Made by a program: the position numbers and the translations under genes. The notes beneath the pieces were generated by a model, which saw only the letters and a list, made by a program, of their open reading frames with translations, was not told the origin of the DNA and ran no database searches. Of a stretch of DNA of 64,000 bases, positions 762 through 28,879 are shown piece after piece. The stretch spans positions 403 to 64,402 of the forward strand of contig CALXVV010000012.1 of the NCBI GenBank assembly GCA_944392205.1, given 5' to 3'. How positions within the stretch are numbered: the stretch's first letter is position 1; each line of letters starts with the position of its first letter. The DNA comes from an uncultured Alphaproteobacteria bacterium (lineage in GTDB: Bacteria > Pseudomonadota > Alphaproteobacteria > RF32 > CAG-239).

Positions 762-2564
762 ATGCAAGAACCCCCGATTTTTACCTTAAAAGGTGTCAGC
801 CTCTCGTTTGGCGACAACCAATTGTTTCAAAATGTTGAACTCTACATTAACCGCGGAGATAAAATCTCTTTGGTTGGCCGCAATGGTTCAGGCAAATCTA
901 CCTTGCTCAAAATTATTGCCGGTGTTCTTGAACCGGATAGCGGGGAAATCTTTGTCCAGCCCGGAATAAAAATTTCTTATATGCCCCAAGAGCCTGATTT
1001 TGGTAAGTGTAAAACACTGCGCGAGGTCGTACGATCCGGCTTGCCAAACTATACCCCCGAACAGGAATATAAGGTCAATATCCTTATTGAACAACTCTCC
1101 ATTGCTGCTGAGCAAGAGGTGGAAAGCGCCTCCGGCGGAGAAAGGCGCAAGGCCTCTCTGGCAAAAGCCCTTATCAATGAACCGGATATTTTGCTTTTGG
1201 ATGAGCCCACTAACCACCTGGATATTGCCACCATCGAAAAACTTGAAAACATCATCAAAGAATTTCAAGGCGCCGTCGTGCTCATCTCCCATGATAGAAT
1301 GTTTTTATCTAACACCTCGGGAGCCACTTTTTGGCTTGACCGCGGCAAAATGCATCGAAACAATAAGGGGTTCAAATTCTTTGAAGAATGGCAAGAGCAA
1401 ATCATTAACCAAGAGATTATTGAGCAAAATAACCTCAACCGCAAAATTGCCGAAGAAACCGAGTGGCTTCACAAAGGAGTCACGGCCAGAAGACGCCGCA
1501 ATATGGGGCGGTTGCGCAGGCTCCAACAGCTCCGGGCCGAAAGGCGTGAACAAATTAAACAAATCGGCAACATCAACCTCAATATCGATGAGGGAGATTT
1601 TCGCTCTAAATTGGTAATTGAGGCCAAGCATATCTCAAAAGCTTTTGGCGAGCGCCAGATTATCAAAGACTTTTCCACCCGCGTTATCAAGGGAAACAAA
1701 ATCGGTATTGTCGGGCCTAATGGTGCCGGAAAGACAACTCTTGTCAAGCTCTTGACCAAGCGTCTGGAACCAGACAGCGGTTCTGTGCGTATCGGTAAAA
1801 ACCTTGAAGAAGCTTATTTTGACCAAAACCGTATAACCCTGGACCCTAAGAAAACTTTGTGGCAGACTCTTTGTGATAAAGGCGACCACATCATGGTGCA
1901 GGGACATTTTCGCCATGTAGTGGCCTACTTAAAAGACTTTCTGTTTAAGCCAAGCCAGGCCCACTGCCCGGTTGCTGCTCTCTCCGGCGGAGAGAAAAAT
2001 CGTCTGATGCTGGCCAAGGCTCTTGCCCAACCCTCAAACTTCTTGGTTCTGGACGAGCCTACCAATGATTTGGATATGGATACTCTTGACCTTTTGCAGG
2101 AAGTGCTTGATGACTATGGCGGAACGATCCTTATTGTCAGCCACGACCGTGATTTTCTGGACAGAGTGGTTTCTTCCATCATCTATCTTAAAGGCGACGG
2201 CACTGTCTATGAGCATGCCGGCAGCTACTCAGAGCTTTTGGAAAAAATTTCTGCAACCTCAAACAAGCCTGCAAAAACTGAGCAGAAAAAATCCTCTGCC
2301 CCTCTTCTAGAGCCAAAACAAACTTCTAAGCCTAAAAAACTCAGCTACAATCAGCAACGATTGTTGCAGGTTTTGCCTACCGAAATAGAGCAAATCGAGG
2401 CTGAAATTGCAAAGACTGAAGAGGAACTTTCAGATGCTTCGCTTTACACCGAAAATCCGCAACGATTTGATATTTTGAGTAAAAAACTGCCGGAGCTTCA
2501 GGCTCAAAAGGAAGAAAAAGAAAATCAGTGGCTGGAAATTCAGCTTTTGGCTGAAGAACTCTAA
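762..2564 (+). CDS. ABC-F family ATPase (Uup/EttA-like, two ABC domains plus C-terminal coiled coil)
   Basis: Two Walker A motifs (GRNGSGKST, GPNGAGKTT), two signature motifs (SGGERRK, LSGGEKNR) and two Walker B motifs (LLLDEPTNHLD, LVLDEPTNDLD). No transmembrane domain. Lys/Glu-rich C-terminal tail. Confidence 0.9.
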   Translation: MQEPPIFTLKGVSLSFGDNQLFQNVELYINRGDKISLVGRNGSGKSTLLKIIAGVLEPDSGEIFVQPGIKISYMPQEPDFGKCKTLREVVRSGLPNYTPEQEYKVNILIEQLSIAAEQEVESASGGERRKASLAKALINEPDILLLDEPTNHLDIATIEKLENIIKEFQGAVVLISHDRMFLSNTSGATFWLDRGKMHRNNKGFKFFEEWQEQIINQEIIEQNNLNRKIAEETEWLHKGVTARRRRNMGRLRRLQQLRAERREQIKQIGNINLNIDEGDFRSKLVIEAKHISKAFGERQIIKDFSTRVIKGNKIGIVGPNGAGKTTLVKLLTKRLEPDSGSVRIGKNLEEAYFDQNRITLDPKKTLWQTLCDKGDHIMVQGHFRHVVAYLKDFLFKPSQAHCPVAALSGGEKNRLMLAKALAQPSNFLVLDEPTNDLDMDTLDLLQEVLDDYGGTILIVSHDRDFLDRVVSSIIYLKGDGTVYEHAGSYSELLEKISATSNKPAKTEQKKSSAPLLEPKQTSKPKKLSYNQQRLLQVLPTEIEQIEAEIAKTEEELSDASLYTENPQRFDILSKKLPELQAQKEEKENQWLEIQLLAEEL

Positions 2565-22881: not shown

Positions 22882-24375
22882 ATGGAGATTTCAGAACTGC
22901 ATTTGCAAAAAATGCGTTATCCGAATAATGATTTTGACAGCTATTTTATCACGGCACAAGAAGTGGCTGAGGTTTTGGCTGTGGGGAAAATTCCGCATAT
23001 TACTTTGCCGCAAAGCTCAAACGGCCCAACCGTTGCGGTTTTGATGGCGGTTGAAAAACACCCGGACCGCGAAGAGCCTGACTACTATGTGCCTGAATTT
23101 TATGTAGAGGCTATCACGCAAAATGGCGGAAACCCCGTTTTTATCGGTTTTGATAAAACAGCAGAACAACTGCAACAAACCATGCCGCAGGCCATATTAT
23201 TGGTGGGTGGGGATTTTGCCTTTCCGCCCGCTTGGTTGGAAGAAGGCATCCAAGCCCATGGCGGAAATCTGCGCCGAGAAAAAGCCTATGAGACCATGAT
23301 AACTTATGCCAAAGAGCACAAACTGCCGCTTTTGGGTATTTGCGCCGGAGAGCAGGTTTTGGCCGGAACTTTGGGGGCAAAACTTTGCATGGTCAAAGGG
23401 CACCGTGCCTCCTTGGATGATGATGCCCACCTGATTAACATTGTTCCCCACACTCTGCTCGCCAAATTGTGCGGGCTAAAAATGGCTAAAGTCAACTCTA
23501 ACCACCACATGGCTGTATCTGCTAAAACAAGCGGAGATTTTGTTGTCTCGGCCACGGCAGAAGACGGCACCATTGAGGCTATTGAGCCTAAAGACCCGTG
23601 GCATTATTTTGTTTTGGGCGTGCAATGGCACCCCGAGCGCATGGTAAAAAAAGAAGATTTTCTCACGGATAGAATCTTCAATGGTTTCATGAAAGCGGCT
23701 CGCGGCGGCTTTGTGCATAATCATGAGGCCATCCCCTTTTCTCAGGCGCCGATGGTTGAGATTGACGACCCGCATTTTATTGTTGATATGATGTATGCCA
23801 AACCCCAAAACCTCTCCGGACAGCCGGTTTATGAGCTTTGCGGAATCGGCAACCATGCCTATGTGCGGATTGAATTGTGGGAGGCCCTAAAAAAGCTTAT
23901 TCCCTGGCTTGAGGAACATCAGCTCAAGCTCAAAATATGCGATGCCTTCCGCCCGATGAGTGCGCATATGGCGCTCAAAGAGGCAATCCACGAGAAAGGG
24001 CCCGGAATTTTTGCCAGCCTTGCGCAAACATCTAAACACTGCCACGGAACCGCAGTTGATGTCTTGCTCACCGATATGAACGGCAACGAGCTTGCCTACC
24101 CCACAAAAGTTGACTGCTACCGTCCTGATTTGGCAGCCAAAATCCAAAAAGGCGACACAAAAGATTTTTATGAATACACCAAATGCGGCCGGCATGACTA
24201 TTTTGCTCCCAACCTGGAAAAAGAAATTGCCAACCGCGAACAGCTTAAAAATCTTATGGAAAGTGTCGGCCTCATCTCTTGGGTGGGCGAATGGTGGCAC
24301 TATGAACTGCCCGACGAGTTTAACCTTGTTTACCCACCGGTCGAGCGCCGGCCAGGCAAGCGCCTGGAGGCATAA
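22882..24375 (+). CDS. Two-domain enzyme: N-terminal class-I glutamine amidotransferase-like peptidase C26 (gamma-glutamyl hydrolase type) fused to a C-terminal D-alanyl-D-alanine dipeptidase (VanX/DdpX, peptidase M15D)
   Basis: N-terminal domain: LPLLGICAGEQV (nucleophile Cys elbow) and VLGVQWHPE (His/Glu). C-terminal domain: ICDAFRP, SKHCHGTAVD (SxHxxGxAxD zinc motif) and EWWHYE. The last ~13 codons and the stop codon lie inside a repeat element. Confidence 0.85.
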   Translation: MEISELHLQKMRYPNNDFDSYFITAQEVAEVLAVGKIPHITLPQSSNGPTVAVLMAVEKHPDREEPDYYVPEFYVEAITQNGGNPVFIGFDKTAEQLQQTMPQAILLVGGDFAFPPAWLEEGIQAHGGNLRREKAYETMITYAKEHKLPLLGICAGEQVLAGTLGAKLCMVKGHRASLDDDAHLINIVPHTLLAKLCGLKMAKVNSNHHMAVSAKTSGDFVVSATAEDGTIEAIEPKDPWHYFVLGVQWHPERMVKKEDFLTDRIFNGFMKAARGGFVHNHEAIPFSQAPMVEIDDPHFIVDMMYAKPQNLSGQPVYELCGIGNHAYVRIELWEALKKLIPWLEEHQLKLKICDAFRPMSAHMALKEAIHEKGPGIFASLAQTSKHCHGTAVDVLLTDMNGNELAYPTKVDCYRPDLAAKIQKGDTKDFYEYTKCGRHDYFAPNLEKEIANREQLKNLMESVGLISWVGEWWHYELPDEFNLVYPPVERRPGKRLEA

Positions 24376-24500
24376 CTTAGCTGGTGCGAACGCGCACTTC
24401 GACCAGGCAAGCGCCTGGAGGCATAATCAAGCTGTAAACCGCAAGGCTAAAAAGCCTCTTCATCTGAAGAGGCTTTTTACGGCTTGCTGGCGCCAGTGCC
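24338..24500. repeat. Mosaic palindromic repeat cluster (REP/RPE-like), copy A
   Basis: Units present: CCGGTCGAGCGCCGG, CCAGGCAAGCGCCTGG (twice), GTGCGAACGCGCAC, ..TAA(C/T)..AGCTG(T/G).., then the hairpin AAAAAGCCTCTTCATCTGAAGAGGCTTTTT and CGGCTTGCTGGCGCCAGTGCC. Homologous clusters lie at 28686-28879, 39283-39412 and 41175-41422. Confidence 0.85.
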
Positions 24501-24517
24501 TTGACCAAATAAATTAA

Positions 24518-24545
24518 TTGCATTTTAATTTTTCTGCTCTAATAT
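24518..24545 (+). promoter_or_regulatory. Predicted sigma70-type promoter of leader RNA copy A
   Basis: TTGCAT, 16-nt spacer, TAATAT. It is part of a 42-nt block (24514-24555) that is identical at 28912-28953 and 41455-41496. Confidence 0.6.
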
Positions 24546-24551
24546 CATTTC

Positions 24552-24874
24552 CGCAAGGGCGAGTTGCCCCTGCGGAGTGTAGAAGCTCCTCTCAAGAAAA
24601 AGAACAACTCCTTTATGGGGAGCTGGGGATATAAGTATGCTTGCATGACGAATAAGGCAGACTGTCACGGTACAGTTTCGTCTTGCTGCGTAGGTTTCGC
24701 GCTTTGCGCTCAACAACTCCGCTTCGGTCACTTGTTTTCTAATTTCGTTTCGCTTGCTCACACTTCACTCACTCAATCAAGAAAACTTACGCCTCTTGTG
24801 GTAAAATCAACCGGAGCAGCGGTTGATTTTATCCTCGAGCTCCCCGCCTTGATTTTTCAAGGAGGTTTCTTTTT
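24552..24874 (+). ncRNA. Structured leader RNA, copy A (long variant with a ~150-nt insert), ending in an intrinsic terminator
   Basis: Shares the P1 hairpin (GCAAGGGC-GAGUU-GCCCCUGC), the GGAG..CUCC hairpin and the conserved blocks AACUCCU..UGGGGAGC, AUAUAAG, GACGAAUAA and AGACUGU with copies B and C. The terminator CCGCCUUGA-UUUU-UCAAGGAGG plus U-tract is at 24844-24874. The 5' end is only predicted from the promoter. Confidence 0.6.
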
Positions 24875-24899
24875 AATAAGAAATTTAGGAGTTGAAACG

Positions 24900-25139
24900 A
24901 TGAATAATAAAAAACAAGCTATCAGAGAACTTATTCAAAATCACGGCACTATTGCTCAGCAACTTCACCAACTGAGAGTGTCTAAACAATTATCTTTAGA
25001 GAAACTTTCTCATGACACCAGAATTCCTCTCTACATTTTGGACGATATGGAAATTGGCTCTCACCCCTTGCAGCTTTCCAATCTCTATATCTTAGCCAAA
25101 TACTACGGCAAAAAAATTCATATCCAACTGATAGATTAA
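24900..25139 (+). CDS. XRE-family helix-turn-helix protein (79 aa)
   Basis: AGGAG lies 8 nt upstream of the ATG at 24900. The sequence QLRVSKQLSLEKLSHDTRIPLYILDDMEIG fits the Cro/C1-type HTH pattern. The track's 191-aa version reads through the leader RNA, so I rejected it. Confidence 0.7.
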   Translation: MNNKKQAIRELIQNHGTIAQQLHQLRVSKQLSLEKLSHDTRIPLYILDDMEIGSHPLQLSNLYILAKYYGKKIHIQLID

Positions 25140-25143
25140 AAAA

Positions 25144-25171
25144 GTAGCCCACCGGTTAAACTGGTGGGCTA
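25144..25171. terminator. Bidirectional terminator between the HTH gene and secB
   Basis: TAGCCCACCGG-TTAAA-CTGGTGGGCTA hairpin. Confidence 0.75.
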
Positions 25172-25175
25172 TTCC

Positions 25176-28733: not shown

Positions 28734-28879
28734 CTGTAACTCGCCCGGCTCCCTTTGGTCGGCGCGCTAATCGGCAGTGCCCAGGCAACGGCCTGGAGCG
28801 ATTACCAAGCTGTAACCCGCGAGACTAAAAAGCCGCTCCTCACAACGCGGCTTTTTACGCCTTGCTGATTTTGGGTGCC
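28686..28879. repeat. Mosaic palindromic repeat cluster, copy B
   Basis: CCGGTCAAGCGACCGG, GTGCGAACGCGCAC, ACTTAGCTGTAACTCGC, CCAGGCAACGGCCTGG, CAAGCTGTAACCCGC, then the hairpin AAAAAGCCGCTCCTCACAACGCGGCTTTTT. Confidence 0.85.

Follow-up and report, generated by a model that had tools for sequence, protein, structure and literature searches.

The closest described precedent for a small repeat lodged in a structured leader RNA is the BOX element of pneumococci, a repeat built of A, B and C modules whose mobility is attributed to an insertion sequence (IS); a BOX repeat lies between two T-box units of the trp leader and is co-transcribed with them, and RNA-seq shows that regulation is retained (Croucher et al. 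2011, PMC3049150). Here we analyze a related arrangement in a 64,000-nucleotide stretch of DNA from an uncultured Alphaproteobacteria bacterium (contig CALXVV010000012.1 of assembly GCA_944392205.1; the whole stretch is hereafter called the window), in which a 160-nt non-coding element splits the leader RNA of a small XRE-type helix-turn-helix (HTH) gene, a module termed copy A. As in the BOX/T-box case, a small non-autonomous structured repeat sits inside a structured cis-regulatory 5' leader and gives a composite 5' untranslated region, whereas the insert here lies within a helix rather than between units, and BOX has no tRNA T-loop target. The Rickettsia palindromic elements (RPE) and alphaproteobacterial palindromic repeats form hairpins, measure about 100–150 nt and can be accommodated within functional genes, those for RNAs included; RPEs enter protein genes in frame, and we know of no report of T-loop specificity for them. 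The present element can be likened to RPEs by description only, as a short non-coding hairpin repeat spreading in small alphaproteobacterial genomes. Williams reportedly described in 2002 integrative elements that target tRNA genes and whose integrases act at the T-loop sublocation. Like these, the element studied here targets the T-psi-C loop, and its copies at tRNA loci are framed by a duplicated tRNA 3' end with terminator, resembling attL and attR; unlike them, it is 160 nt long, encodes nothing, and occurs at many tRNAs in both orientations, and at the leader 3 nt are replaced. A general review of small bacterial repeats (PMC3184786) lists no T-loop-targeted repeat that lacks both terminal inverted repeats and target-site duplications, and our non-exhaustive literature search found none.

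The leader insert and its genomic relatives

Copy A is probably (at a probability of about 0.8) a standard member of a module family, consisting of promoter, ~170-nt leader, terminator, Shine-Dalgarno (SD) sequence and XRE HTH gene, that was struck by a 160-nt non-autonomous mobile repeat. A BLAST search with the 175 bases around the insert against 56 genomes of the genus gave matches in 46 of them, with at most 16 matches per genome and 70–99% identity. The repeat is present in three genomes that contain no match to R1, the covariance model of the leader (G011, 7 matches; G017, 4; G034, 2), and no BLAST match to it was found in the leader-bearing genomes G019, G007 and G023. Copies at least 97% identical to the window insert are confined to the source genome (G000; 1.38 Mb, 45 contigs, 93% complete) and its close relatives G024, G031 and G073. 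Within the source genome, a profile of 15 diverse copies detects the leader-borne copies and five others, to which BLAST adds a sixth (C10:14223-14276, beside tRNA-Met). All six non-leader copies are located directly downstream of tRNA genes, namely those for Ala(cgc), Val(tac), Lys, Glu, Pro and Met, usually with a second copy of the tRNA 3' end and its terminator on the far side, and both orientations occur at tRNA loci. Its occurrence at tRNA genes, and in genomes that lack the leader, marks the insert as an independent repeat and not a domain of the leader RNA. We therefore read it, from sequence comparison, as a copy of a dispersed mobile repeat rather than a variant RNA domain tied to the HTH payload.

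The module is laid out as follows (window coordinates).

24349–24434: REP-like units, which together with the terminator at 24449–24478 form the 5' limit of the module
24449–24478, + strand: intrinsic terminator of the upstream peptidase C26/M15 gene, hairpin AAAAAGCCTCTTC-ATCT-GAAGAGGCTTTTT
24518–24545, + strand: promoter block TTGCAT-16-TAATAT (-35, 16-nt spacer, -10), assigned from conservation and position
24553–24573, + strand: P1 hairpin of the leader RNA, with 7 of 8 pairs formed in copy A
24574–24589, + strand: GGAG-N8-CUCC block, 5' strand of the outer long-range helix A; an alternative local hairpin is possible
24591–24672, + strand: leader core, with the helix B 5' strand at 24591–24598 and its 3' strand at 24665–24672
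within the leader core: P3 at 24608–24622, P4 at 24623–24627 with 24656–24660, P5 hairpin at 24636–24648
within the leader core: conserved GAUAUAAG and CGAAUAA loops flanking P5, with GACUGU 3' of them
leader core motifs: GGGGAGC at 24616–24622, GACGAATAA at 24647–24655, AGACTGT at 24659–24665
24673–24679, + strand: CAGTTTC, leftover of the helix A 3' strand (A') to the left of the insertion point
24680–24839, + strand: 160-nt non-coding repeat element, GTCTTGCTGCGTAGG ... TTTTATCCTCGAG
insert hairpins: H1 at 24699–24709, H2 at 24734–24740 with 24780–24786, H3 (terminator-like) at 24803–24830
24840–24865, + strand: CUCCCC (3' end of helix A, or partner of GGGGAG), then the native intrinsic terminator
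24866–24891, + strand: second hairpin TTTCTTTTTAATAAGAAA using the terminator U-tract (24866–24883), then the SD sequence AGGAG (24887–24891)
24900–25139, + strand: gene of the 79-aa stand-alone XRE-family HTH payload
25143–25173, + strand: terminator serving both the HTH gene and the convergent secB; 3' boundary of the module

The terminator segment at 24449–24478 recurs 5' of other module copies. As proposed in a first-pass annotation of this DNA, the promoter, P1 and the 5' core of the RNA are kept in copy A, and CUCCCC with the terminator follows the insert. Module copies B and C have exactly the promoter of copy A. An insert with hairpins is indeed present, although its extent, given earlier as ~150 nt at about 24690–24840, is corrected to 160 nt at 24680–24839; likewise, the hairpin AAAATCAACCG-GAGCA-GCGGTTGATTTT exists, at 24803–24830 instead of 24810–24838. 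What does not hold is the idea of a variant module linked to the HTH payload, since the repeat is found at tRNA genes, in genomes without the leader, and, in sister genomes, in leaders before a 72-aa protein (L104, L114). A false lead is thereby removed: variant A is no evidence for a modular extra leader domain or for a pairing of insert and HTH gene.

The family consensus begins with (G/T)TCT(T/A)GCT.CGTAAG, followed by the small hairpin H1. The outer stem of the central long hairpin H2 covaries (GUUUUCU/AGAAAAC, GUUUACU/AGUAAAC, GUUUUGU/ACAAAAC), with -2.7 kcal/mol for cognate vs -1.1 kcal/mol for non-cognate strands, and H3, a hairpin with A-run, stem and U-run, covaries as well and is followed by ATCCTCGAG. 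H1 and H3 sit near the two ends of the element, both with compensatory variation. RNAalifold on a MAFFT alignment of the element resolves only the 3' hairpin. As a count of the strand that folds, G:T and A:C mismatches in the element folds number 30 vs 17, mostly in H3. A closing helix between the 5' end and the region before CCTCTTG was dropped, as it showed no cognate advantage (-3.70 vs -3.54 kcal/mol). No open reading frame (ORF) of at least 40 aa starts or ends within 24680–24839. Neither of the ends, GTCTTGCT... and ...ATCCTCGAG, is an inverted copy of the other, so the element has no terminal inverted repeats, and the junctions show 2–4 nt replaced with no target duplication.

The insert is also related at letter level to neighboring repeats, as had been noticed for a segment resembling repeat cluster C of the window. 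Of the 17 genomic occurrences of the 11-mer TTCGTTTCGCT, insert copies account for 7 and REP-like units CGCTCAACTCACAAAGTTCGTTTCGCTGGC for 10; ~0.7 would be expected by chance. Insert and cluster C share CGCTCAAC and TTCGTTTCGCT in the same order, but their local alignment scores only ~2.8 standard deviations above shuffles, so that common descent of the insert and the REP-like units is no more than plausible. Arrays of ~50-nt units (a GC hairpin plus AGGCATAACTTAGCTGTAA.CCGC; repeat families D5/D6) stand before modules at 24349–24434, 28778–28812, 39279–39313 and 41322–41356 of the window. Their motif CTTAGCTGTAA resembles the 5' end of the mobile element (TCTAGCTTGGTAA or TCTTGCTCGTAA), and some of the units carry CGCTCAACTCACAAAGTTCGTTTCGCTGGC, sharing an 8-mer and the 11-mer with the element.

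Other forms of the element were seen in sister genomes. Tandem arrays with a ~95-nt repeated spacer containing a terminator (...caaaaaaaaccaccctcaaaagggtggtttcttttt...) lie at L105 (G073:C74), L109 (G031:C3) and L117 (G024:C32). Their copies are 86–92% identical to the leader-borne subfamily, with which they have the 3' two-thirds in common, and are candidates for its source lineage. At L108 (G031:C1:145886-146016), the P5 region of a leader is joined directly to the element interior, ...GCTATGCTCGA abutting AGCGCTTCGGTCAC...; this locus looks like a deletion derivative that has lost P4', B', A' and approximately the first 36 nt of the insert.

Insertion target, junctions and recency

To define the target, the flanks of 20 non-leader copies were mapped onto the tRNAs of the source genome. 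Most tRNA-derived junctions are located in the T-loop (TTCGAAC), in either orientation, with 2–4 loop bases missing. Specifically, the Asp junction (reverse complement) reads ACGAGGCTC, element, CTCGCGAC against native ...GCTCGAACTCGC..., and the Val junction reads CGGGAGTTCG, element, CTCTCAGC against native ...GTTCGAACCTCTC.... The Phe and Ser junctions (both reverse complement) consist of CGGGATCG and GGAGGGATTTG on the left and CGCCGAC and CCCCC on the right, respectively, and in the Glu junction (reverse complement), which likewise falls in the T-loop, GGGATTC precedes the element.

The leader junctions are uniform. On the left, CAGTTTC is joined to (G/T)TCTTGC in 13 distinct junctions; on the right, ATCCTCGAG is joined to CTCCCC in all, after which come varied native terminators and payloads of four HTH subfamilies as well as the 72-aa protein. 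GAA or TAC is lost between CAGTTTC and CTCCCC, and nothing is duplicated. The native leader sequence at the site is most often CAGTTTCGAACTCCCC, and the commonest type of A' is GTTTCGAACTCC (10 of 39). As the 3' strand of helix A often reads GUUUCGAACUCC, the site CAGTTTC-GAA-CTCC looks like a T-loop. Since the sequence of A' differs freely from copy to copy, this likeness is no conserved feature of the leader, and we read it as fortuitous. Taken together, the junctions suggest the following course. The usual home of the repeat is directly downstream of tRNA genes, within partial tRNA copies whose T-loop it interrupts; the look-alike on the 3' strand of helix A has been entered at one fixed position (CAGTTTC, element, CTCCCC), presumably through repeated site-specific insertions by an enzyme supplied in trans.

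Several observations bear on the age of the insertions. The five insert-bearing modules of the source genome have different native terminators and encode four HTH subfamilies, yet their inserts are at least 97% identical, and the HTH ORFs behind all five are intact, which fits recent insertion. At the orthologous locus, G073 contains the module without the insert (A strand GUAGAAGC, A' reading CAGTTTCTACCTCCCC); its HTH protein differs from that of the window in 6 of 79 residues, and different DNA lies downstream of the module. In G031 the same locus has no module, and the peptidase gene terminator leads directly to secB. The empty copy G000 C35 and its filled counterpart G031:C15 have an identical 330-nt upstream sequence. 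Among 80 public loci with the core pattern, 57 have the short form and 2 the long form. As a separate matter, the whole ~0.8-kb module (window 24376–25175: REP units, promoter, leader, HTH gene and terminator) is a presence/absence polymorphism.

The leader RNA family, its payloads and the effect of the insert

The source genome holds about 17 leader copies by BLAST and covariance model, 12 uninterrupted and 5 interrupted. The 5' halves of the interrupted copies lie on C12, C16, C39 and C19 and the 3' halves on C12, C30, C18, C17 and C36, with most half-copies at contig ends. As MAFFT misaligns one helix, the 12 short copies were aligned manually on the structure with N-padding, and pairs were counted on the named structure. 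The leader comprises P1, an outer long-range helix A of 12 bp (GGAGU-A-strand with A'-ACUCC), an 8-bp inner helix B, a three-way junction bearing P3 (CUCCUU/GGGGAG) and P4-P5, and the terminator. In this alignment, 97.2% of 600 cells are paired and 25 of 50 pairs show compensatory changes, including 8/8 pairs of helix B, 4/8 of helix 1 (P1) and 3/9 of helix 7 (in the CUCCCC-terminator segment); when partners were slid by 1–3 columns as a control, only 40–46% of cells paired. Over 39 distinct modules, the mean A/A' duplex energy is -14.0 kcal/mol for cognate vs -8.6 kcal/mol for non-cognate strands (permutation p = 0.0002), and 11 of the 12 short copies retain both long-range helices. The leader is a real multi-copy structured RNA.

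R1 matches 28 of 36 same-genus genomes, at 0–32 copies per genome, and a few more distant ones. A DNA scan for the core pattern led to public metagenome-assembled genomes (MAGs) from the guts of humans, mice, chickens and ruminants; they represent uncultured Alphaproteobacteria and are filed as "Azospirillum sp." or Candidatus Scatocola. No family of Rfam 15 reaches its gathering threshold for the leader or the insert, with 0 matches in the window, and at an E-value threshold only sub-threshold chance matches to terminator hairpins appeared. Downstream of the terminator, the second hairpin TTTCTTTTTAATAAGAAA covaries with its counterpart GTTTTGTTTTAACAAAAC in the copies before the 72-aa gene. 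Inspection by eye found no antiterminator, that is, no segment covarying with the variable position of the terminator stem. The SD region GGAGUUUGAAAC (24886–24899 in the window, and likewise in other HTH copies) is a near copy of the helix A 5' strand (GGAGU-A-UCGAAAC) and is 12/12 complementary to the commonest A' (GUUUCGAACUCC), with a pairing energy of ~ -9.5 kcal/mol. This pairing potential is generic and its covariation not significant (p = 0.064), so sequestration of the SD by A', energetically possible as it is, was dropped. Two further copies of the source genome deserve mention. The uninterrupted copy C29 (G000:C29:2813-2981; L007/L039) has mismatched A/A' and B/B' (5/8 pairs in B) and looks like a chimera of two paralogs, pointing to recombination or assembly mosaicism even where no insert is present. 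The divergent copy G000:C41:30569-30736 (L016/L040) has a different promoter, and its downstream ORF (MAVKNNQRLQELIKTLEEDEISINPDF...), which starts ~90 nt past the terminator, encodes no obvious HTH protein.

HTH proteins are the usual payload of this leader, and the 72-aa protein is the exception. Among the payload ORFs of the source genome, 14 of the 17 recovered encode small HTH proteins, alongside two ORFs for the 72-aa protein and a single unrelated one; across the loci retrieved from the genus, HTH proteins of 72–96 aa make up 33 of 35 distinct payloads and have the pattern ...LRQLR...LS...IE.G...YYGKKI.I.L.D in common. The view that one leader fronts unrelated payloads thus stands as far as the 72-aa non-HTH protein goes, but the HTH gene of copy A is in no way unusual. 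At least four HTH subfamilies exist in the source genome, starting MNNKKQAI... (K type), MNNFSSIL... (F type), MKYKTIQE... (Y type) and MRNKEIKE...; they are 24–59% identical to one another and differ strongly in the helix-3 (predicted recognition helix) region. In a Pfam search of 15 aligned HTH members, HTH_31 was matched by 13, HTH_25 by 9 and HTH_3 by 7. The 79-aa protein of the window taken alone falls just under the Pfam cut-off (HTH_25, 22.6 vs 24.6 bits), while the family profile matches XRE-type HTH proteins, in agreement with its earlier annotation as such. The best solved relatives of the profile are the DdrO N-domain (6rnz/6jq1, E ~1e-8), C.BclI (2b5a) and C.AhdI (1y7y), and 434 Cro is also matched. 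Like restriction-modification (R-M) controller (C) proteins, Cro and the DdrO N-domain, the payload is a small XRE HTH protein of 72–80 aa; unlike them, it has no partner gene (R-M system, toxin or protease), occurs as 15–30 paralogs per 1.4-Mb genome, and is encoded each time behind a structured leader RNA with terminator.

The 5' part of copy A matches R1 with 66.7 bits (E = 2.7e-17), far above chance, and contains the core motifs of the family: P3 (CUCCUU/GGGGAG), P4-P5 with the AUAAG and CGAAKAA loops, and GACUGU. The insert splits A', leaving only GUUUC and CUCC, and with helix B at 2/8 pairs and P4 at 3/5, copy A does not form the long-range helices A and B that mark the family. Helix B is broken in each of the four long 5' parts of the source genome (2–5 of 8 pairs), whereas in sister genomes 7 of 9 long copies keep 7–8 of the 8 pairs. 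Minimum free energy folding of long leaders does not recover the native fold, and GGGGAG pairs with CUCCCC instead. The mismatched helices B and P4 could reflect relaxed constraint after insertion, recombination between paralogs, or chimeric assembly across the ~65-nt conserved core. As for function, the insertion would part the A' halves GUUUC and CUCC by 160 nt, remove three paired bases and put the terminator-like H3 (24803–24830) in front of the native terminator. Should helix A take part in the switch, a role to which its covariation points, control of the leader over the HTH gene would be uncoupled, altered, silenced or lost.

Competing explanations and the mobilising activity

Repeated insertion has to be weighed against a single ancestral insertion that spread among paralogous modules by ectopic homologous recombination or gene conversion. 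This latter course, which we regard as rather unlikely, draws on orthologous loci with identical 5' parts but different payloads or terminators (G000 C40 vs G073:C85, and G000 C35 vs G031:C15), on the mismatched A/A' and B/B' of copy C29 and several long copies, and on the left flank CAGTTTC(G), which stays constant even where the A strand predicts another A'. It would require conversion tracts that end within ~8 nt of the insert on both sides each time, far less homology than recombination normally needs, and it leaves aside that at unrelated tRNA loci the same repeat family is joined precisely to the T-loop. Just 7 nt separate the insert from B' on its left, where eight different sequences are found, and 6–7 nt from the terminators on its right, which also differ; this favors repeated insertion over gene conversion. 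Some observations nevertheless weigh against insertion as we picture it. In 9 of 13 long copies, copy A included, the residual GTTTC(G) flank does not match the A strand exactly as its partner, and for 5 of these nine (A = (G/A)TCAGAG or ATAACGG) the native A' would not start with GTTTC; either the 5' parts have recombined, or the element carries some flank bases along, or the assembly has produced contigs chimeric across the core. Two tRNA-linked copies lie in the D-loop and one in the anticodon arm rather than in the T-loop. The replacement of 2–4 target bases with neither terminal inverted repeats nor duplication appears to fit no transposition or integration chemistry that we considered, and searches for Y1 transposases and tyrosine or serine recombinases revealed no mobilising enzyme. 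The genomes are MAGs, and three of the four long 5' halves in the source genome lie at contig ends. That the insert itself is an artefact of assembling a repeat-rich metagenome bin is hardly credible: seven of the eight long-variant half-copies of the source genome outside the window do end at contig ends, but the complete insert with both junctions is spanned inside contigs of four independent assemblies (G000:C12, 66 kb; G031:C15; G073:C8; G024:C40 and C78), and it is present in two public MAG records as well.

Two further explanations would give the arrangement a regulatory meaning. The first-pass annotation proposed that the HTH protein could act on the promoter block shared by the modules, and binding of the payload to this 42-nt block with auto- or cross-regulation would agree with the match of the XRE-type profile to C.BclI, C.AhdI and 434 Cro, since autoregulation is typical of small stand-alone XRE proteins, R-M controller proteins and Cro among them. 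AT-rich inverted repeats over the -35 region (AATTAA-N7-TTAATT, or TTAATT-GCA-AATTAA in variant promoters) also speak for it, but such palindromes are expected by chance in AT-rich sequence. A manual table of promoters against payloads shows an identical block before the K-, F- and Y-type HTH genes, whose helix-3 regions differ strongly, and before the gene of the non-HTH 72-aa protein, so the block is not a payload-specific operator. The proposal is thus unsupported and, in our view, improbable, although a common regulator may act at the shared block. The promoter function of 24518–24545 is itself deduced from conservation and position, as the block scores below the threshold of a consensus promoter scan. 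Still less probable is that selection has kept the insert as an accessory part of a composite riboregulator, for instance as an extra terminator or small-RNA domain, or as an internal promoter (TGTGGTAAAAT, extended -10 type, 24797–24807) that would make HTH expression independent of the leader. The HTH ORFs are intact behind all five inserts, the element hairpins are conserved and covarying, H3 resembles a bidirectional terminator, copy A has the TGn-TAAAAT motif, and the BOX repeat offers a precedent of co-transcription with pneumococcal T-box leaders and retained regulation (PMC3049150). Against this, the same element occupies tRNA loci in both orientations and genomes that have no leader, its copies are at least 97% identical and hence recent, the long form is rare (2 of 59 public loci), and the leader helices are degraded in the long copies of the source genome. 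The TGn motif TGTGGTAAAAT is not conserved either, as several leader-borne copies read TTGCGGTAAAAT, and the consensus promoter scan does not call it.

Next, we compared the element with known mobile classes and looked for an enzyme that might move it. Two tyrosine recombinases of Xer-like type and a small serine recombinase are encoded in the source genome, and a search of its 93% complete sequence found no Y1 transposase; 11 of the 56 genus genomes do have such an enzyme, among them two of the three sister genomes (G024 and G031). The ends of the genus's two IS200-like families show no similarity to the element profile. No longer element with the same ends, a possible autonomous relative, was found in the source genome, nor were distant pairs of end motifs; the other genomes were not exhaustively searched. 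Simple core-crossover models for tyrosine or serine recombinases were rejected by reasoning, as they do not reproduce the observed junctions. Like miniature inverted-repeat transposable elements, the repeat is small, non-coding and multi-copy; unlike them, it lacks terminal inverted repeats and target duplication, and the searches above found no related autonomous element. Like the IS200/IS605-derived PATEs and REP/RAYT, it has hairpins near both ends, neither terminal inverted repeats nor duplication, and a short specific insertion sequence; unlike them, it loses target bases, and no Y1 transposase was found in the source genome. As for tRNA-targeting integrative elements, the tRNA-linked copies show T-loop insertion with a duplicated tRNA 3' part, while the leader copy has no duplication and the element, at 160 nt and with no ORF, encodes no integrase of its own. 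We put forward tentatively, at somewhat less than even odds, that the insert may represent an undescribed class of non-autonomous, site-specific mobile DNA that recognizes the T-psi-C-loop motif (TTCG-AA(C)-C) as DNA, replaces 2–4 loop bases with neither terminal inverted repeats nor target-site duplication, is moved in trans, and in one clade has switched from tRNA fragments to the look-alike in the leader RNA. If so, the modules would amount to a naturally occurring set of insertion alleles for an orphan riboregulator.

The locus links two things, a structured leader RNA before small XRE genes and a tRNA-gene repeat that appears to have recently invaded this leader at a T-loop-like site. What is new is the target behavior of the element and the connection between the leader RNA family and the tRNA-linked element. 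The junctions supply a testable target definition for an enigmatic mobile repeat, and the natural empty and filled leader alleles offer a means of probing the function of the leader. Contig breaks caused by repeats, together with mosaic copies, affect any covariation analysis of the leader RNA family in MAGs.

The 160-nt repeat is not the only kind of mobile DNA striking these modules. At L240 (G024:C107; locus coordinates 1300-2176, minus strand), an IS200-like element lies within the U-tract and second hairpin, between the terminator of a short-form leader and the SD of the HTH gene; it encodes a 149-aa Y1 transposase and has the end hairpins ACTACCGGCTAGGCCGGTAGT and CCACCGGCTAAGCCGGTGG.

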